DNA of 64,000 nt from a virus, in IMG/VR virus record IMGVR_UViG_3300024348_000004. One strand, 5' to 3'. The notes below the pieces were generated by a model. It saw nothing but the letters and a program-made list of their open reading frames with translations. It was not told the DNA's origin and searched no databases. Both the position numbers and the translations under genes were made by a program. Below are positions 10,268 to 50,392 of the stretch, one piece after another. The number at the start of each line of letters is the position of its first letter. Position 1 is the first letter of the stretch.

Positions 10268-10344
10268 GTCCTCGTAGCTCAACTGGATAGAGCAACAGCC
10301 TTCTAAGCTGTAGGTTATAGGTTCGACTCCTATCGGGGACGCCA
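10268..10344 (+). tRNA. tRNA-Arg(UCU)
   Basis: Cloverleaf GTCCTCG...anticodon loop CTTCTAA...GGTTCGACTCC...CGGGGAC G CCA. Confidence 0.95.
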
Positions 10345-25099: not shown

Positions 25100-25311
25100 G
25101 TGAATGTCCTCAACCTATCGAGTGGGACGATGAACTCGAATCATCAGAACTTGAATTAGGAGATGTAGAAGCTGCATCCGATTTCGTATGGCAGGTTCTC
25201 TTCCTATCACCAATAGAGTTAATTTACATAGGTGTATCAATGTCAGTTCTGGCAACTTATGGATTAAGCATTTACTATATGTTTAAGTGGATACAAAAGA
25301 AATTTAGTTAA
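25096..25311 (+). CDS. Small membrane protein
   Basis: ATGA/TAATG coupling; C-terminal TM. Confidence 0.65.
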   Translation: MSECPQPIEWDDELESSELELGDVEAASDFVWQVLFLSPIELIYIGVSMSVLATYGLSIYYMFKWIQKKFS

Positions 25312-27152
25312 TGTATAATTGGAAGACAGTCTTAGTGACTATCGGGTTACTAGTAGGACTTAAAATTTGGTCACCATACATTGTAGAAAATATACAATGG
25401 TCATGGTTTGATTTTCTACATCAACAACAACCTGTACTTCAAGTTGACGATATCATACTTGTTGATATTGATGAGAAGACATTAGAAACATATGGACAGT
25501 ATCCATTACCAAGAAACATCTATGCTGAAATTATGTTGGAAACACATTGGAGTAACACTCATGTGTTCACCCAACTGTTTAAAGAAGTCGATAGATTCGG
25601 TGGTGACGAGATATTTGCTGAAGGTCTAGTAAATAGACTTTCTATTCTATCTTCAGCTCCAACAATACAAAAAGATACAGGAACTGCACCTTTCGTCAAT
25701 ACTTCAGTGTTTGGTGGGGGTGTTATAGAAGATAACATCTGGCAGTTTTCAGGAATTGCATCTCCAATCAGGATACTTCAGGACAATACTTACGGTGTTG
25801 GAGTAAGTGTAACCACACCTAGTGTATCGGGAACACCAAATTTTGATGGTACAACTCGCTCTGCACCCCTATTAGTTCTTGCAAATAATCAAATCTATCC
25901 AAGTGTTGCACTAGAAACACTACGTGCTATACAAGACCAACCTTCGTATCAGACCCGTGTAACTGAATCAGGGATAGAATGGATTAGGATGGGACGTGCT
26001 AAACCAATAACCACCACACCAACTGGTGATGTGATGATATCATATTGGAACCAATTCAAAAGAGTTAGTGCTAGTGAACTCTCTAATTCAGATTATGAGA
26101 ATAAGATTCTAATATGGGGTTTGACTGCTGAAGGTCTGAATAATCCAGTGTCAACTCCAGTGGGTGTATTATATCCCCACGAAGTGCAAGCGAACCTAAT
26201 CCAAACCGTTTCGCAAGAAGTTCAAATACAACAATCTTACTATCTCGAATTGCTTGAGATTGCTCTTTTGGTGATAGCACTTCTAAGTATTCTACTCGTG
26301 GTCTACAATGTTCCCACAATTTTTGCGGGTCTAGTGAGTCTAGGTATTGTTGGATTTCAGGTGGGTGGGGGGTTCTATTTGTGGACTTCGTCTTTCGTTC
26401 TTTTCGATACTTTCTACTCATCGATAGCCTCCTTGATGATTTTCGGTCATGCTTCCTTCAACAAATACTATACGACCTACCAACTCAAAGAAGAAATTAA
26501 GAAGCAGTTCCAAAAGTATTTATCGCCTGACATGGTTGACCAACTCGCTGAGAACCCCGAATTATTGAAACTTGGTGGAGATAGAAAGGAACTTACCTTC
26601 ATGTTTATGGACATATGTGGATTCACCCCCATAAGCGAACACTACATGAAACAAGATGACCCCGAAGGATTAGTAGAACTTGTCAATAAATTTCTTGACA
26701 TGCAGACAAAGATAATCCTAAATAATAATGGAACAATCGACAAGTATATGGGAGATTGTATTATGAGTTTTTGGAATGCACCGTTAGATTGCCCCGACCA
26801 TGCCGAGATGGCAGTCAAGTCTGCAGAAGAAATACTAATCGCAACCAAGGAACTTAATGAAGAACTCAAACCACTCGGTCTTCCCCCTATCAATGTTGGT
26901 ATTGGTATTAACACTGGTGAGTGTATCGTTGGAAACATGGGGTCAGAACTTAGATTTGACTATTCCGTCATTGGAGATGCCGTCAACCTTGGTGCTAGAC
27001 TCGAAGGACAAACACGAAATTATGATGGGGTGGACGTGTTGCTGGGCGAAGAAACATATAGACAGTGTCCATCTAGAGCATTCACTAAAGTCGATAGAAT
27101 CCTTGTCAAAGGTAAATCTGAAAAAGTTACCATTTATACCCCCACCAACTGA
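25311..27152 (+). CDS. CHASE2-domain class III adenylate cyclase
   Basis: IILVDIDEKTLETYGQYPLPR (CHASE2), TM bundle, FMDICGFT, TIDKYMGD, FDYSVIGDAVNLGARLE. Confidence 0.93.
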   Translation: MYNWKTVLVTIGLLVGLKIWSPYIVENIQWSWFDFLHQQQPVLQVDDIILVDIDEKTLETYGQYPLPRNIYAEIMLETHWSNTHVFTQLFKEVDRFGGDEIFAEGLVNRLSILSSAPTIQKDTGTAPFVNTSVFGGGVIEDNIWQFSGIASPIRILQDNTYGVGVSVTTPSVSGTPNFDGTTRSAPLLVLANNQIYPSVALETLRAIQDQPSYQTRVTESGIEWIRMGRAKPITTTPTGDVMISYWNQFKRVSASELSNSDYENKILIWGLTAEGLNNPVSTPVGVLYPHEVQANLIQTVSQEVQIQQSYYLELLEIALLVIALLSILLVVYNVPTIFAGLVSLGIVGFQVGGGFYLWTSSFVLFDTFYSSIASLMIFGHASFNKYYTTYQLKEEIKKQFQKYLSPDMVDQLAENPELLKLGGDRKELTFMFMDICGFTPISEHYMKQDDPEGLVELVNKFLDMQTKIILNNNGTIDKYMGDCIMSFWNAPLDCPDHAEMAVKSAEEILIATKELNEELKPLGLPPINVGIGINTGECIVGNMGSELRFDYSVIGDAVNLGARLEGQTRNYDGVDVLLGEETYRQCPSRAFTKVDRILVKGKSEKVTIYTPTN

Positions 27153-27456: not shown

Positions 27457-27572
27457 AAACCCCTTGAAATTTTAGAAAAAACCCATATAATAGTAGTATG
27501 GTGTTATAAATACCATTGTAATGCCCATTAGGGGTTACATAACATTAACTTGCTTAATAAAGGAGAAAAACT

Positions 27573-27998
27573 ATGACACATTTCAATGATGTCTTCGGGA
27601 AATTTTCAACAGAATTCCCATTCGCAATCGGGTTCGACAGAACTCTTCAACTATTAGAACGTGCAGATGTGCAATCTAATTCTAACTATCCACCTTACAA
27701 TATTGTAAAACATGATGCAGAGAACTTCTCTATCGAACTTGCAGTAGCTGGATTTACCAAGAAAGATATTACTATCTCAAAAGAGAAAGAAGTTCTTTCA
27801 ATCGAAGGTAAACAAGAGGAAGGAGACGAACTTGAGTATGTCCATAAAGGACTCGCATCACGTTCATTCAAAAGAACATTCACACTTGCAGACGACATTG
27901 TCGTTAAAGGTGCAGACATGAAGAATGGTATTTTGAGTGTTAGTTTAGAGAGAATTGTGCCTGAGGAAGACAAACCTCAAGAAATCAAAATTTCTTAA
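27573..27998 (+). CDS. Small heat shock protein (Hsp20/IbpA)
   Basis: IGFD, NYPPYNI, IELAVAGF, HKGLASRSF, NGILSVSL. Confidence 0.95.
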   Translation: MTHFNDVFGKFSTEFPFAIGFDRTLQLLERADVQSNSNYPPYNIVKHDAENFSIELAVAGFTKKDITISKEKEVLSIEGKQEEGDELEYVHKGLASRSFKRTFTLADDIVVKGADMKNGILSVSLERIVPEEDKPQEIKIS

Positions 27999-28081: not shown

Positions 28082-28579
28082 ATGTTAAATGTAGGTGATA
28101 AAATCCCTCAAGTGAATCTTCCGATTCAAGTCGATGGTGAATTCAGAACTTTGGATACACTTAAACAACTAGAGGGCAAAAGAGTAATTCTTTTTGCATT
28201 GCCAGGCGCATTTACTCCAACATGTTCCAACCAACAACTGCCAGGATTTGATTCCATGTTTGAACAGTTTGATGAGAAGGGCATTGAAGAGATTTATTGT
28301 TTGTCTGTTAACGATACTTTTGTTATGAACAGTTGGTTCGAAGCACAAGACGTACAGAGAGTTTATCCACTGCCTGATGGTAATGGTGAATTCACACAAG
28401 CAATGGGTGCCTCAGTGGAAAAAGGTAACGTAGGATTCGGTATCAGAAGTTGGAGATATGCCATGGTTATAAACGATGGTGTTATTGAACAGATGTTTAC
28501 TGAAGAAGGTCAAGATGATAACATCAATAGTGACCCTTACGAAATATCAACTCCCGAGAACGTATTAGAGAATCTTTAA
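28082..28579 (+). CDS. Peroxiredoxin (Prx5-type)
   Basis: LPGAFTPTCS, SVND, DGNGEF, RSWRYAM. Confidence 0.95.
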   Translation: MLNVGDKIPQVNLPIQVDGEFRTLDTLKQLEGKRVILFALPGAFTPTCSNQQLPGFDSMFEQFDEKGIEEIYCLSVNDTFVMNSWFEAQDVQRVYPLPDGNGEFTQAMGASVEKGNVGFGIRSWRYAMVINDGVIEQMFTEEGQDDNINSDPYEISTPENVLENL

Positions 28580-28580
28580 T

Positions 28581-29693
28581 ATGGAACTGAGTAGGGAAGA
28601 TACCATATGGGTAGCGAGCAAGCTCGTTAACTATTTTGCAGACTTCAAAAGAATTGACGATTACTTTCGTGCAAGGAAAATTGAAAGAGTAAAGGACTTA
28701 CCTGCTCCGTTGTTCGGATTCGGTCTTGAGGATGACATGTTTCAAAACTATGACATGCATCCTCAAGACATGAATTTTGAGGTTACAACAATACCAAATG
28801 AAACATTTGATGCGATGTTGGAAAAAACTGCATCATTTTCGCCTGATGAATCGCCAGGCAAAACTATGAAACTCGTAGTTAAGGAGACCAATACAAACAC
28901 TGTAGTGGGATTCATAAGATATGGTTCACCACTAATCAATTCAAAACCAAGAAACGATTACCTTGGTTCTACACCCGACTTAGATATATTCAACAAACGT
29001 GCAATCATGGGATTCAACATTGTCCCTGTACAACCATTTGGATATAATTATCTTGGTGGTAAACTTCTTGCCGCTATCTGTTGTTCACACGAAACACGTA
29101 GAATGTTGAACGCTAAATATAACACAGAGTTCTGTTTATTTGAAACAACATCTTTATATGGTAACATCAAAGGTGCAAGTATGTACGATGGTATGAGACC
29201 ATTCTTAAGATACAAGGGTGATACACAGAGTAAGTTTTTACTTACACTAGGCGAAGAACTATACTTTGAACTAAGAGATTGGTTCACCGATAGAAACGAT
29301 GGAGAAGACTTGATACACAAAGGTGCTTCATCTCGTAAACTAAAAATGCAGACTAAGATGGTTAGTCTAGTAAAACAGAATTTAAAGAAACATGACTCCA
29401 TAGGATATGACCACTTCTGTAAAGCAATTGAAAATGCAAGTGGTGTAACTACACAGAAAAGATTCTACATGTCAGAATGGGGATACAGTAATACAAAAGA
29501 TGTATTGCTTGGTAAGACTGATAAACTAATCAAAGCAGAAAACTTTGATAGATTTGAGATGGATGGTATCCTCGCATGGTGGACAAAACATGCTAGTAAA
29601 AGATTTGATAATGTTATCAAACAAGGAAGAAATCGTACAGAGTTAGAAGTGTGGAATCAAAACACTATGAACAAAATAGATATTATAAGATGA
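28581..29693 (+). CDS. DUF4338/DruA-like protein, Mom-like GNAT fold; putative DNA modification enzyme
   Basis: VVKETNTNTVVGFIRYGSP, IVPVQPFGYNYLGGKLLA, FETTSLYG, SMYDG...YKGDT. Confidence 0.65.
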   Translation: MELSREDTIWVASKLVNYFADFKRIDDYFRARKIERVKDLPAPLFGFGLEDDMFQNYDMHPQDMNFEVTTIPNETFDAMLEKTASFSPDESPGKTMKLVVKETNTNTVVGFIRYGSPLINSKPRNDYLGSTPDLDIFNKRAIMGFNIVPVQPFGYNYLGGKLLAAICCSHETRRMLNAKYNTEFCLFETTSLYGNIKGASMYDGMRPFLRYKGDTQSKFLLTLGEELYFELRDWFTDRNDGEDLIHKGASSRKLKMQTKMVSLVKQNLKKHDSIGYDHFCKAIENASGVTTQKRFYMSEWGYSNTKDVLLGKTDKLIKAENFDRFEMDGILAWWTKHASKRFDNVIKQGRNRTELEVWNQNTMNKIDIIR

Positions 29694-30082
29694 AAATAGG
29701 ATTCACATGTGGTGCATTTGACCTTCTTCATGCTGGTCATATTGTAATGTTAAAAGAAGCATCTGAGAACTGTGACTACCTAATTGTGGGATTACAAACA
29801 GACCCTTCAATCGACAGACAAGAAAAGAATCAACCATGCCAATCAGTATATGAAAGGTACATACAACTAAGAGCAGTCAAATACGTAGATGAAATTCTAC
29901 CATATGACACTGAACAGAGTCTGTTAGACTTGATACAGTCTACAGAGATTCATATGAGGTTCGTAGGAGAAGACTACATAGGTGGAGATTTCACTGGAAA
30001 AGGAATGCATGAAATATATTATACAGATAGACAACATTCATTTTCCACAACCAATTTAAGGAACAAAGCGGGACTAGTATAA
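29690..30082 (+). CDS. Cytidylyltransferase (TagD/RfaE-like, HIGH family)
   Basis: GAFDLLHAGH, YLIVGLQTD, VKYVDE, GEDY, FSTTNLR. Confidence 0.92.
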   Translation: MKIGFTCGAFDLLHAGHIVMLKEASENCDYLIVGLQTDPSIDRQEKNQPCQSVYERYIQLRAVKYVDEILPYDTEQSLLDLIQSTEIHMRFVGEDYIGGDFTGKGMHEIYYTDRQHSFSTTNLRNKAGLV

Positions 30083-30142
30083 CGGTCATTACGAGGGGTT
30101 ACCAACTCTTAGATAACAGTTCGATTCTGTTGTCCCGCTCCA
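30068..30142 (+). tRNA. tRNA-Gly with atypical ACC anticodon
   Basis: GCGGGAC TA GTA-TAACGGTCAT-TAC G AGGGG-TTACCAA-CTCTT AGAT AACAG-TTCGATT-CTGTT GTCCCGC T CCA; Gly identity elements G1-C72, C2-G71, U73, C35C36. Confidence 0.88.
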
Positions 30143-30149
30143 ATATATT

Positions 30150-31478
30150 ATGCTAGATAATTTTTATACAGAAAAGACATATCAAAAGACAATTAGGATA
30201 TTAGTCTATCCTAATATCACATGGCAGAAGAACTTAGAACAAGATTCTTATGTACAAGTGTTAAAGAATATGATTCGTGAAACACAGAACGAACCGTTCT
30301 ACTGGCATATCATATCACCAACCCATATAGATGGCTTGACATTCGATAATACGGAACAGTATTTACTACCAGTTCCCACATATCCACCAGTAATGAGAGC
30401 ACACTTTGATGTAGAATCAGTGAGGAGACTAGTGGGTCATGATAAAGATTTTGATATCATCATGTCACACTTGCCAGAACATACTCACCAGTTAGTAAAT
30501 ACAATTTACAACATGACACACCACACACCAAAGGTTATTGGTTACTCGCATTGGTTTGACTTTGACCATATAGTTGCCTGGCACAAAGGTACATTCAATC
30601 AGAATGCTACAGGTCTGTTAGAGTACGATAGATGTTATATCAATACACAATGTCAGAAAGATATGGTATTGAATCAAGCAAGAGATACGTTCAATGAGAA
30701 TACTGTATCTAAACTAGACAACATTCTAAAAGTTCAACACTTGGGTGTACACTTAGATGATATTGTCAGTGTGAATAACACCCCAACAAGAACTATAGTA
30801 TTCAATCATAGATGTGAAAAGTACAAACACTTTGATGAGTTTATTGCTTTGATGGATGCATTGTGGGAACAGAGACAAGACTTTAATGTTTGGGCACCAT
30901 TGTTTGATGGTAGTTTCAGTAAACCATATCTATCAAATGAAAAGTTTGATAAGAAAGGATATTACAAAAAACTAAATGAGTGTTACATGGGATTTGCACC
31001 TAAACAAAAGTATGGTGGTTGGAGTGTTGCTGCTACAGATGGAATGATGAATGGATGTCCATACATATTCTATGAGGGTGCCTACTATCACGAATTACAA
31101 GATGACGCTGACTTCTTTACTACAGATGATGAATCACTCAAACTAATCAATGAGTATCTAGACGATATCGATTTAAGAAATGATAAAGCAACTCAAGCAC
31201 AAGATTGGTTGAGAACGCATCTACTATACAGTACAGAGATGGATAAGATGTGTGATGAAATTAAATCACTTCTATCAAAAGCAGTATGTTCACCTAAAGT
31301 AGATGAACTTGTGGAGTATGTAAAGGAACATAAATCAGTAACTAAGAAGGAATTGTTTGATACCATGGGATGGGGAAGAGGAATTAAATGGACACCTTAC
31401 AGACGTGCCTTGATGACACACCCAAACATATATGACACTACCAGTAGTGAATCCACATACAATTGGAGAGAGGAATGA
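30150..31478 (+). CDS. GT-B fold glycosyltransferase (candidate DNA glycosyltransferase)
   Basis: DFDIIMSHLPE, TIVFNHR, YGGWSVAATDGMMNGCP (GT4-like donor-binding region). Confidence 0.75.
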   Translation: MLDNFYTEKTYQKTIRILVYPNITWQKNLEQDSYVQVLKNMIRETQNEPFYWHIISPTHIDGLTFDNTEQYLLPVPTYPPVMRAHFDVESVRRLVGHDKDFDIIMSHLPEHTHQLVNTIYNMTHHTPKVIGYSHWFDFDHIVAWHKGTFNQNATGLLEYDRCYINTQCQKDMVLNQARDTFNENTVSKLDNILKVQHLGVHLDDIVSVNNTPTRTIVFNHRCEKYKHFDEFIALMDALWEQRQDFNVWAPLFDGSFSKPYLSNEKFDKKGYYKKLNECYMGFAPKQKYGGWSVAATDGMMNGCPYIFYEGAYYHELQDDADFFTTDDESLKLINEYLDDIDLRNDKATQAQDWLRTHLLYSTEMDKMCDEIKSLLSKAVCSPKVDELVEYVKEHKSVTKKELFDTMGWGRGIKWTPYRRALMTHPNIYDTTSSESTYNWREE

Positions 31479-32738: not shown

Positions 32739-35246
32739 ATGGATTATTATACAAACGTATGTCGTACACGTGACAAGATTCTCGTTCGAGGATATCAAGG
32801 TAACAAACAAGTCAAGCACAAGATTGACTACAGACCCAAACACTACATTCCATCTAAGAAAGGCGAGACACCGTTTCGTTCACTAGATGACAGACCACTT
32901 GAAGTTGTAGAACTCAACTCAATGGGTGGTGCAAGAAAGTTCCGTGAGAAATATGATGGGACTGCTGGATTTGAAATCCATGGATATGACAGATATATCT
33001 ATACATATATCGCAGAGAAATTCCATGGAGACATAGAGTTCGATTCAAAGAACATCAAAGCAGCGGTACTTGATATTGAGTGTGAGTGTGAAGATGGATT
33101 CCCCGACCCAAGATATGCCCAAGAAAAGATAAACGCAATTACAATCAAACCGATTGGTAAACCAGCACATGTATTCGGAATAGGTGACTGGAATCACGGT
33201 AAAGATTATGTGTATTATCCTTGTAGAGATGAAGCACATCTCATGACTGAGTTCATGAAGTATTGGAGAACGGAAAACTTTGATATCATCACAGGTTGGA
33301 ATGTAAACTCATTCGATATTACATACATTTGCAACAGAGTTGATAGACTCTTCGGCGAAGGAGAACACAAGAAGTTATCTCCATGGGGTATGAGTGATGT
33401 GAGAGAGTTCACCACCATGGGTTATCAAAAACAAATGATTTTTACACTCTATGGTGTTAATGTTCTTGACTATCTCGAACTATATCGTAAACACACATTC
33501 GTCAATCAAGCATCATACAAACTAGACCACATTGCTGAGGTAGAACTAGGTAAGAAGAAACTAGACTATTCAGAACATGGGTCATTACATACACTATACA
33601 AACAGGACTATCCAAAGTTCTTGGAGTATAATGTGATGGACGTTCTTCTCGTTGAAGAACTGGATGACAAACTTGGATTCATCGAACTTACAGAGACGAT
33701 GGCATACAATGCTAAGTGTAATTATGCAGATGTATTTGGTATGGTTAAGTATTGGGAAACAATCATATACAACTTCTTAAAAGAACAGAAGATACAAACA
33801 CCACCACAACAATTAAGAAGAACTGGTGACAAAATCAAACCTATCGCTGGTGCATATGTAAAAGAACCACAGGTTGGTGGTCACAATTGGGTCATGTCTT
33901 TTGATTTAAATTCACTATATCCTCACTTGATTATGCAGTTTAACATCTCACCCGAAAAGATGGTGAATGGTATGAGACAGGATGTCAACGTGGATAAAAT
34001 GTTAAACAAAGAGTGTAACCTAAATGAAGTGTATAGATTGGGACACACTGTTACGCCAAACGGAGTAATGTTTAAGAGAGACAAACAAGGATTCCTTCCC
34101 GAACTTATGGAAAAGTTCTATGATGAACGTAAGGCATGGAAGAAGAAGATGATTGGGTATCAGAAAGAACTTGAAACTGTTTCTGATAATGTACAACGTA
34201 AAGAATTAGAAACAAAAATCAAACATGCATACAACAATCAACAGGTCAGAAAGATTGCACTCAACTCTGCTTATGGTGCTCTTGCTAATCAATATTTTGC
34301 ATTCTTTTCTATCGACCTCGCAGAGGCGATTACTATGTCGGGTCAGTTGGTCATCAAGTGGGCAGAGAAAACCATCAATGATTATCTAAACGAAGTCTTA
34401 AAGACTAAAAAAGATTATGTTATCGCAATGGATACAGACTCAGTCTATATCACAATGGATGCATTGGTACAACAAGTACTACCCGATGCATCTAAAGAAG
34501 AGGTTGTTGATTTTTTATGTAAAGCGGAAGTTCAACTAGAGAATATCCTAGAAAAAGGATTCATTGACTTTGCAAAATACACGAATGCATTCCAACAGAA
34601 GATGGAGATGGGACGTGAGGCGATTGCAGACAGAGGTATATGGACTGCTAAGAAACGCTACATACTTAACGTACATGACATGGAAGGTGTGAGGTTTGCC
34701 AAACCTAAACTTAAACTCATGGGTATTGAGACTGCAAAGTCCAGTACACCACAATGGGTAAGAACACGTCTTGAAGAGGCGATTAAGATTGTCATGCAAG
34801 GTGATGAGGAACAATTATGGGATTACGTAGAAACTGCACGTAAAGAATTCAGAGAGTTACCACCCGAGAAAGTATCATTCCCTAGAGGTTGTAACAACCT
34901 TGGTCAATATAGTAACATGAACACCATCTACACTAAGGGAACACCAATACATGTCCGTGGTGCTTTACTATTCAATCACCACCTAAAGAACAAGAATTTA
35001 GATAGACGCTACGAGACAATCAAGGAAGGTGACAAGATTCTTTTCTCATATCTTACACTACCAAATGTGTTCAATGAGAATGTGATATCTTATGTTGGTA
35101 CACTTCCAAAAGAGTTTGACTTACACAGATTCATAGACTATGACATGCAGTTCAACAAATCATTCTTAGAACCTCTAAGAAATATTGCAGAACGTATCGG
35201 ATGGCATACAGAACCTGTTGCATCTTTGGATAGTTTCTTTTCATGA
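32739..35246 (+). CDS. 43: gp43 family B DNA polymerase
   Basis: DIECE, GWNVNSFD, SFDLNSLYP, KIALNSAYG, DTDS, KKRY, C-terminal SLDSFF clamp-binding motif. Confidence 0.97.
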   Translation: MDYYTNVCRTRDKILVRGYQGNKQVKHKIDYRPKHYIPSKKGETPFRSLDDRPLEVVELNSMGGARKFREKYDGTAGFEIHGYDRYIYTYIAEKFHGDIEFDSKNIKAAVLDIECECEDGFPDPRYAQEKINAITIKPIGKPAHVFGIGDWNHGKDYVYYPCRDEAHLMTEFMKYWRTENFDIITGWNVNSFDITYICNRVDRLFGEGEHKKLSPWGMSDVREFTTMGYQKQMIFTLYGVNVLDYLELYRKHTFVNQASYKLDHIAEVELGKKKLDYSEHGSLHTLYKQDYPKFLEYNVMDVLLVEELDDKLGFIELTETMAYNAKCNYADVFGMVKYWETIIYNFLKEQKIQTPPQQLRRTGDKIKPIAGAYVKEPQVGGHNWVMSFDLNSLYPHLIMQFNISPEKMVNGMRQDVNVDKMLNKECNLNEVYRLGHTVTPNGVMFKRDKQGFLPELMEKFYDERKAWKKKMIGYQKELETVSDNVQRKELETKIKHAYNNQQVRKIALNSAYGALANQYFAFFSIDLAEAITMSGQLVIKWAEKTINDYLNEVLKTKKDYVIAMDTDSVYITMDALVQQVLPDASKEEVVDFLCKAEVQLENILEKGFIDFAKYTNAFQQKMEMGREAIADRGIWTAKKRYILNVHDMEGVRFAKPKLKLMGIETAKSSTPQWVRTRLEEAIKIVMQGDEEQLWDYVETARKEFRELPPEKVSFPRGCNNLGQYSNMNTIYTKGTPIHVRGALLFNHHLKNKNLDRRYETIKEGDKILFSYLTLPNVFNENVISYVGTLPKEFDLHRFIDYDMQFNKSFLEPLRNIAERIGWHTEPVASLDSFFS

Positions 35247-50316: not shown

Positions 50317-50392
50317 GCTCCCATAGCTCAGTTGGTAGAGCAACTGATTTGTAATCAGTAGGTCAACCGTTCGAATCGGTTTGGGAGCTCCA
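50317..50392 (+). tRNA. tRNA-Thr(UGU)
   Basis: GCTCCCA...loop TTTGTAA...GTTCGAATC...TGGGAGC T CCA. Confidence 0.95.

Follow-up and report, generated by a model that had tools for sequence, protein, structure and literature searches.

What is a gene for a glycine tRNA doing in the middle of a tight array of enzyme genes, just upstream of the DNA polymerase gene of a phage? The question is raised by IMG/VR record IMGVR_UViG_3300024348_000004, a stretch of 64,000 nt (hereafter the window; 37% GC) from an uncultured T4-like marine phage. At positions 28581–31478 of the window, four elements follow each other on the plus strand. Open reading frame (ORF) 1 (28581–29693, 370 residues) encodes a putative acyltransferase with GNAT fold from the DruA/DUF4338 family, and ORF2 (29690–30082, 130 residues) a cytidylyltransferase-like nucleotidyltransferase (CTase) with a HIGH motif (HAGH). 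They are followed by a tRNA-Gly with anticodon ACC and encoded CCA (30068–30142) and by ORF3 (30150–31478, 442 residues), which encodes a GT-B/GT4-like glycosyltransferase (GT). An earlier note on this DNA had described four tightly coupled genes about 1.3 kb upstream of gp43, the DNA polymerase gene (32739–35246). Both statements hold: the ATG of ORF2 overlaps the stop codon of ORF1 as ATGA, the 5′ 15 nt of the tRNA-Gly gene overlap the end of ORF2, 7 nt separate the tRNA-Gly gene from the start of ORF3, and gp43 starts 1.26 kb downstream of the cassette. The four-element cassette as such is confirmed. As to its function we propose, tentatively and at somewhat less than an even chance, that it serves DNA hypermodification, ORF1 moving glycine from the phage Gly-tRNAGly to a DNA base, and ORF2 and ORF3 adding an activated sugar or polyol.

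Homologues of ORF1 number more than 6,000 in metagenomes. With two queries sharing 53% identity we obtained a set of 161 ORF1-anchored loci (1.18 Mb), in which ARAGORN detected 47 tRNA genes, all of them for Gly (24 UCC, 23 ACC). Pattern search combined with a covariance model revealed 15 further tRNA-Gly-like genes that ARAGORN had missed. All 62 tRNA or tRNA-like genes in these loci are thus of the Gly type, with zero of any other type. The earlier note had proposed to test adjacency of tRNA-Gly to homologues of ORF1 and held that a lack of enrichment would refute its idea; tRNA-Gly is indeed enriched next to them, to the exclusion of other tRNAs, and co-travel with CTase and GT genes is seen as well. 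The position of the tRNA-Gly gene varies between at least six arrangements. That of the window clade is ORF1-CTase-tRNA-GT; others are gp43-tRNA-ORF1, ORF1-tRNA, hsp20-tRNA-ORF1, ORF1-tRNA-second DruA paralogue, hsp20-tRNA-prx-ORF1-CTase followed by a GT of 328 residues, and gp43-tRNA-328-residue GT with ORF1 3.6 kb beyond. The tRNA could also be an ordinary codon-supplementing tRNA kept by synteny, with ORF1 being an acyl-coenzyme A (CoA)-dependent GNAT, whether its target is DNA or something else. We consider this explanation rather unlikely. The 62 genes of a single type, spread over so many arrangements, argue against it, and so does the way in which the tRNA has evolved.

In an alignment of 25 members of the tRNA-Gly family, the acceptor positions G1, C2, G3 and G4 with their partners at 69–72, U73 and the encoded CCA are invariant, as are U33, C35, C36, A37, U8, A14 and A21. 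The bacterial glycyl-tRNA synthetase (GlyRS) identity set includes G1-C72, C2-G71, U73, C35 and C36 (PMC7826273). Of the stem cells in the alignment 94.4% are paired, compensatory changes are seen at 14 of the 21 pairs, and every shuffle scored lower than the real alignment. A tally of loop states over 27 distinct sequences gave a different picture for the elbow: G18G19 and T54-T55-C56 are both kept in 14 sequences, both lost in 11, and one of them is lost in two. Since the degenerate tRNA-Gly genes keep 20–21 of the 21 stem pairs, they are not pseudogenes. One of them (L008) lies at the exact position of the window's tRNA-Gly within the window's own clade. An internal control is provided by a 114-kb contig, which has a degenerate tRNA-Gly and yet carries fully canonical tRNA-Arg(UCU) and tRNA-Thr(UGU). 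Position 34 has switched between A and U several times while Gly codon usage is unchanged (GGT 0.53 and GGA 0.28–0.31 in both groups). Repeated concerted loss of the elbow with retention of GlyRS identity and stems, next to intact Arg and Thr tRNAs, and an ACC/UCC switch that is independent of codon usage are not what a codon-supplementing tRNA would lead one to expect. As judged from the alignment, the family is under selection for glycylation and CCA presentation and relaxed at the elbow used by the ribosome, a pattern more in keeping with a carrier of glycine than with a decoding tRNA. A response to codon usage was considered for the ACC/UCC switch and ruled out, because usage is alike in both groups.

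A comparable pattern has been described for Staphylococcus aureus, where non-proteogenic tRNAGly species feed the Fem transferases FmhB, FemA and FemB (PMC7826273). The 11 phage sequences with divergent D and T loops and retained identity resemble them. The phage case differs in that the tRNA is encoded by the virus, its partner is of the DruA family instead of Fem, and the likely acceptor is DNA, not a peptidoglycan precursor.

The enzymes of the cassette also travel together. For 104 ORF1 loci the downstream flank extended over at least 2.5 kb, and in 75 of these a GT gene was found within 4.5 kb downstream of ORF1; 39 have the 442-residue GT4-like type and 36 the 328-residue type. A nucleotidyltransferase gene is present in 54 of the 104 loci. 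tRNA-Gly accompanies 41 of these 54, as against seven of the 50 loci without a nucleotidyltransferase gene. A scan in the reverse direction, anchored on the tRNA pattern, was unspecific, most of its 119 loci being unrelated prophage or tRNA-array contexts; it still recovered several of the ORF1/tRNA arrangements independently.

In most relatives the ORF1 homologue is located directly after gp43, in cultured cyanophages between the clamp-loader genes gp44 and gp62, and in Pelagibacter phage HTVC008M between gp43 and uvsX. From these neighbours it follows that ORF1 belongs to the replication module. Of the cassette, the cyanophages S-SSM7, S-SM2 and S-CAM9 have just the ORF1 homologue. Compared with the gp43 proteins of cultured phages, that of the window reaches no more than 48.6% identity. 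Across lineages whose gp43 is only 43–49% identical to that of the window, ORF1 is 75–79% identical; the nucleotidyltransferase is 71–75% identical across the same lineages (L022–L080 compared with the window). Such high conservation of both sequences would reflect either extreme constraint or recent horizontal exchange of the pair.

ORF1 scores 27.1 bits with the Pfam family DruA/DUF4338 (PF14236; gathering cut-off 27) and matches PHROG 19197 over its full length (E 5e-150). Orthologues of ORF1 score 38.5 and 47.1 bits with PF14236 and a paralogue 76.5 bits, and comparison of the ORF1 family with this more canonical DruA-like paralogue by hhalign gave a probability of 100% (E 3e-63). The DruA/DUF4338 family name alone assigns no function to ORF1. 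A published account treats DUF4338 as a GNAT domain that occurs fused to DndF (PMC10853773). In locus L088 (2027–4567, minus strand), a tRNA-Gly(UCC) gene lies between two DruA paralogues, one of ORF1 type (53% identity) and the other more canonical (the one scoring 76.5 bits); MazG, peptide deformylase and gp45 are encoded in the same block.

An AlphaFold2 (AF2) model of ORF1, built on an alignment of 37 sequences, has a pLDDT of 90.9; in it, a helical N-terminal part is followed by the GNAT core (approximately residues 60–300) and by a basic helix at the C-terminus. Foldseek retrieved GNATs, with probabilities of 0.99–1.00 to RimI, Naa60 and Mom, and VIA-align gave Z values of 8–9.9 to many GNATs over residues 59–325. 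The GNAT fold of the modelled protein is solid. When the 1000 best Foldseek matches were re-ranked by VIA, Mom of phage Mu (8bv8) came first (Z 9.9, 179 residues aligned), and it came first again in a VIA search of 48,161 representative chains that was independent of Foldseek (Z 9.5, 169 residues aligned). The earlier note had described ORF1 as DUF4338-like with GNAT/Mom-like elements; Pfam bears out the family and Foldseek the GNAT fold, and Mom is the top solved structure by VIA.

Mom attaches glycine taken from Gly-tRNAGly to the N6 position of adenine in double-stranded DNA (Silva et al., bioRxiv 2023; Nat Commun 2026; PMC13219725), so that the donor named in the earlier note was the right one. 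It accepts all three tRNA-Gly isoacceptors of Escherichia coli, and its GNAT fold contains an essential helical (HTH-like) insertion, with R111, S124 and R151 being required (PMC13219725). ORF1 resembles Mom (PF25680) in being a phage enzyme of GNAT fold, perhaps also in the additional helices that interrupt the later part of the core, and in its genetic link to tRNA-Gly, Gly-tRNAGly of any isoacceptor being the donor of Mom. In the model of ORF1, the insertion (helices 225–238, 252–271 and 273–287) lies between the last two core strands (210–214 and 294–298), and it may be equivalent to that of Mom. The two enzymes differ in size (231–241 residues for Mom, 370 for ORF1 with added N- and C-terminal parts) and in company, Mom acting alone with a host tRNA and ORF1 travelling with CTase, GT and a tRNA of the phage.

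A number of observations weigh against the proposal that ORF1 is a glycyl-tRNA-dependent enzyme of this kind, and most of them also count in favour of an acyl-CoA-dependent ORF1 with a merely syntenic tRNA. On the side of the enzyme, the lead of Mom is nominal, not decisive: acetyl-CoA GNATs lie within 1 Z unit of it in VIA, aligned over 130–168 residues, which is a statistical tie, and most of the top structural neighbours of the model are acetyl-CoA enzymes. There is no detectable sequence similarity between the two families. hhalign comparison of the ORF1 family with Mu Mom and with a 22-member Mom alignment showed none (probability 0.1 for the alignment), and the Mom hidden Markov model had no match in the six-frame translation of the window; Mu Mom itself, as positive control, matches PF25680 at 253 bits. 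Membership of ORF1 in the Mom family (PF25680) by sequence is ruled out by these results. Counterparts of R111, S124 and R151 of Mom could not be assigned in ORF1. Conversely, ORF1 has a Gly-rich loop that is absent from Mom: the invariant L-G159-G160-K161 is located at the strand-4/helix-3 junction, after strand 141–149. In classical GNATs, this junction binds the pyrophosphate of CoA, and the LGGK sequence could be read as a partial match to the pyrophosphate loop motif Q/R-x-x-G-x-G/A.

On the side of the tRNA, 99 of the 161 ORF1 loci are without a nearby tRNA gene, and in one relative that is 96% complete, ORF1 is present but tRNA-Gly is missing from the set of six tRNAs. In HTVC008M (NC_020484.1), an unannotated degenerate tRNA-Gly(ACC) is located 8.3 kb from the ORF1 homologue (91140–91213). 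Because the loci share common descent, the counts suggest more independent events than there were, and inherited synteny may account for some of the linkage. The tRNA-Gly of the window, found by ARAGORN and Rfam RF00005 (55.2 bits), has the full bacterial GlyRS identity set (G1-C72, C2-G71, G3-C70, U73, C35, C36) together with a canonical D loop (GG) and T loop (TTCGATT), and therein differs from the non-proteogenic type of S. aureus. Its ACC anticodon is the Watson–Crick match for GGU, the most frequent of the phage Gly codons (56%), just as the tRNA-Arg(UCU) and tRNA-Thr(UGU) of the window match the top codons AGA (60%) and ACA (45%). Genes for tRNA-Gly(ACC) also occur within ordinary tRNA clusters of other marine phages, and the use of GGA is slightly higher in tRNA-bearing loci (0.28–0.31 compared with 0.22). 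The earlier note had called the tRNA-Gly dedicated. For the window copy, a normal-looking decoder, this is not supported; given its canonical structure, it is only through the degenerate orthologues in sister phages that such a status is shown. From its sequence, the window tRNA-Gly looks able to serve both in translation and as a glycine carrier.

A search with covariance model R1 in the 100 ORF1 loci then lacking a tRNA yielded one more tRNA-Gly-like gene (L248), and a loose acceptor-stem pattern gave nothing but spurious matches within coding sequence in the tRNA-less loci. The tRNA-Gly-like gene of HTVC008M is located between cobS and the S21 gene and scores 75.5 bits with model R1; its D loop is without GG and its T loop is non-canonical. 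To our knowledge, tRNA-Gly with A34 (anticodon ACC) is very rare in cellular genomes. It recurs in marine phage contigs (L159, L167, L170 and many ORF1 loci) and, at sites without a DruA gene nearby, is also seen in pairs with tRNA-Thr(UGU). The tRNA-Arg(UCU) and tRNA-Thr(UGU) of the window (10268–10344 and 50317–50392, respectively) each stand alone, one 20 kb before and the other 20 kb after tRNA-Gly. When the tRNA-Gly of the window was compared with cultured phages by blastn, the sole match was a tRNA-Arg of a Cellulophaga phage.

Several sequence features of ORF1 had been picked out by eye in the earlier note. All of these are present (VVGFIRYG at 106–113, GYNYLGGKLL at 154–163, TTSLYG at 189–194, SMYDG at 200–204 and YKGDT at 211–215). 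The likeness to Mom that had been seen in them is not significant: in a core-only local hhalign comparison a single stretch, ORF1 210–236 against Mom 165–190, was aligned with an insignificant E of 0.24. The residues that are invariant in the ORF1 family alignment are G110, G160, K161, L162, L192, G194, Y202 and W334. A phmmer search of ORF1 against PDB sequences produced only noise (E at least 0.4), and the two ends of ORF1 had no match in Pfam. One GenBank record labels a homologue of ORF1 as ‘methylcarbamoylase mom’.

ORF2 matches Pfam CTP_transf_like (PF01467) with 56.2 bits (cut-off 21), with the HAGH sequence near the N-terminus, and also PHROG 7878. It is about equally distant from TagD and from domain II of RfaE, scoring 66.3 bits with NCBIfam TagD (TIGR01518) and 69.2 bits with rfaE_dom_II (TIGR02199). 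Both values are far under the equivalog cut-offs (165.4 and 181.5, respectively), and neither identity is supported. The assignment of ORF2 to the HIGH-family cytidylyltransferases in the earlier note stands; its start had to be corrected from GTG 29651 to ATG 29690. ORF2 ends within the tRNA, its last four codons and stop codon falling in the 5′ acceptor and D arm (30068–30082). Because of this position, processing of the tRNA by RNase P would strip the stop codon from the ORF2 mRNA. The overlap is kept in most, not all, of the window clade; in locus L016 the two genes only abut. A role of the tRNA solely as RNase P punctuation or as a recombination site was ruled out, given the invariance of C35, C36 and U73 and the compensatory changes that preserve the stems.

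For ORF3, the Pfam matches to glycosyltransferases (Glycos_transf_1, Glyco_trans_1_2) are below the cut-offs. Its AF2 model (pLDDT 85) is similar to 7qsg (E 1.6e-12) and to T4 alpha-glucosyltransferase (1xv5, E 4e-9) by Foldseek. VIA aligned 341 residues with 7qsg, spanning 12–378 (Z 28.8), and gave Z values of 25–27 to BshA, MshA, PimB′ and PglA. Going by this model, ORF3 is a GT-B/GT4-like glycosyltransferase, as the earlier note had held for the GT-B fold. The core comprises residues 1–378 (30150–31284). It is followed by a C-terminal extension of 64 residues (379–442; 31285–31478), which is covered by none of the GT4 templates and which in the model has the order helix-strand-helix-helix-strand-strand (DSSP). 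This extension resembles a winged helix and may be a nucleic-acid binder. The resemblance is unconfirmed by any search: Pfam had no match to the C-terminal 72 residues, and ESM Atlas returned only weak winged-helix leads with scores below 0.8. No match to ORF3 was obtained by tblastn in cultured phages, and profile searches of PDB sequences with ORF3 and the 328-residue GT yielded none either.

The 328-residue protein takes the place of the 442-residue GT downstream of ORF1 in sister lineages (L036, 2739–3731; L080, 1415–2395), and in L080 it directly adjoins tRNA-Gly. It has no match in Pfam or among PDB sequences. Its nearest named ESM clusters include the T4 beta-glucosyltransferase families (PF09198), which is a lead only. 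HTVC008M contains a homologue with 40% identity (NC_020484.1, 84548–85540).

A GT-B enzyme beside the replication genes of a T4-like phage brings to mind the alpha- and beta-glucosyltransferases of T4 (1xv5 and PF09198, respectively). The best matches of ORF3, however, are cellular GT4 enzymes. In addition, the T4 system includes gene 42, whereas genes for PF00303 proteins (thymidylate synthase/dCMP hydroxymethylase) are absent from four contigs related to the window. Any DNA glycosyltransferase of these phages would thus have to rely on a different acceptor handle, and ORF1 could provide one.

The same pair of enzymes can be seen in another light. CTase and GT4-like GT are a typical glycoconjugate pair, and the best matches of ORF3 are small-molecule and lipid glycosyltransferases (MshA, BshA, PimA). 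Further, the known GNAT-fold enzymes that use aminoacyl-tRNA mostly modify peptidoglycan precursors, lipids, proteins and natural products (PMC13219725), and FemA, a user of Gly-tRNA, took rank 6 in the wide VIA fold search with ORF1. ORF1 might thus be a Gly-tRNAGly user akin to Fem, PacB or L/F-transferase, with an acceptor that is not DNA (a small molecule or sugar nucleotide, a protein N-terminus, a lipid or an envelope precursor), and CTase and GT would build a glycylated glycoconjugate. We regard this as improbable, as the ORF1 family is embedded in the replication module (with gp43 or gp44/gp62), is kin to DruA of Druantia and to the DndF fusions, and has Mom as top structural match with the widest coverage. 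The putative winged helix on ORF3 would likewise point to a nucleic acid.

The kinship with DruA raises a last alternative. ORF1 shares its Pfam family with DruA of type I Druantia, itself at the threshold and with paralogues and orthologues at 38–77 bits, but is a stand-alone phage gene in a replication module, without DruB–E. A phage gene from the family of a defence protein might be a decoy or counter-measure against the Druantia system of the host, or ORF1 could act on the tRNA itself, either by modifying it or by acetylating Gly-tRNAGly as TacT does. There are precedents in GNAT toxins such as TacT, which are directed at Gly-tRNAGly, and in TmcA, which places an acetyl group on a wobble base (PMC13219725). 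We think such roles very improbable. A toxin-like activity leaves unexplained both the co-travel of CTase and GT and the conservation of ORF1 above that of the DNA polymerase (75–79% and 43–49%, respectively), and no other Druantia gene was found among the ORFs scanned around the cassette.

For DNA hypermodification, the reading that we prefer, we infer the donor, the DNA acceptor, the roles of CTase and GT, the order of steps and the chemistry as follows. Host GlyRS would charge the phage tRNA-Gly, the identity elements and encoded CCA of which never vary in the family. ORF1 would then pass the glycine of Gly-tRNAGly on to a base of double-stranded phage DNA, in the way known for Mu Mom. ORF2 would make a nucleoside diphosphate-activated sugar or polyol, and ORF3 would add this to the modified base or nearby, possibly guided by its winged-helix-like C-terminal domain. 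A phage-borne tRNA would supply the donor without draining the translational pool, and in sister lineages tRNA-Gly would have turned into a carrier, with its ribosomal elbow contacts lost. The cassette is probably a new variant of tRNA-dependent modification. A more far-reaching version, which we offer as doubtful, is that marine T4-like phages have a private, host-charged tRNA-Gly, often off the ribosome, that feeds a DruA GNAT glycylating DNA, that CTase and GT extend the adduct into an undescribed base bearing a glycine-linked sugar or polyol, and that DruA of Druantia is likewise an aminoacyl-tRNA-dependent marker of DNA.

In the literature, we found no published description of the ORF1 phage family or of its link to tRNA-Gly. 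As far as we know, Mom (2023–2026) is so far the sole enzyme known to modify DNA using a charged tRNA, and that tRNA is borrowed from the host. If the proposal is right, tRNA-dependent DNA modification would extend to a far more widespread family, in abundant viruses of the ocean, and the tRNA-Gly described here would be the first virus-encoded tRNA evolving from translation towards a role as metabolic carrier. A new hypermodified base would be predicted, and DruA, an uncharacterised component of type I Druantia defence, would gain a testable biochemical hypothesis. The idea is directly testable in the cultured phage HTVC008M, which has the enzyme, the homologue of the 328-residue GT and the unannotated degenerate tRNA-Gly.

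The cassette is part of a co-directional tight array upstream of gp43, hsp20-prx-ORF1-ORF2-tRNA-Gly-ORF3, in which hsp20 (27573–27998) and the peroxiredoxin gene prx (28082–28579) are also on the plus strand. Downstream of the array there are small ORFs and a lysozyme gene. A sigma-70-like promoter match (TTGAAA, 16 nt, TATAAT; 11 of 12 consensus positions) is located upstream of hsp20 at 27464..27491 (plus strand) and may be the start of the array from hsp20 to the GT gene. It is a consensus match only, such sites being no commoner in the region than in shuffles. Further upstream, at 25311–27152 (plus strand), the window encodes a protein of 613 residues (PHROG 35576) that combines a CHASE2 sensor domain (Pfam E 4e-26) with an adenylate/guanylate cyclase domain (E 1e-15). 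A membrane-sensor cyclase is uncommon among phage genes; across sister contigs, this protein is 62–100% identical.

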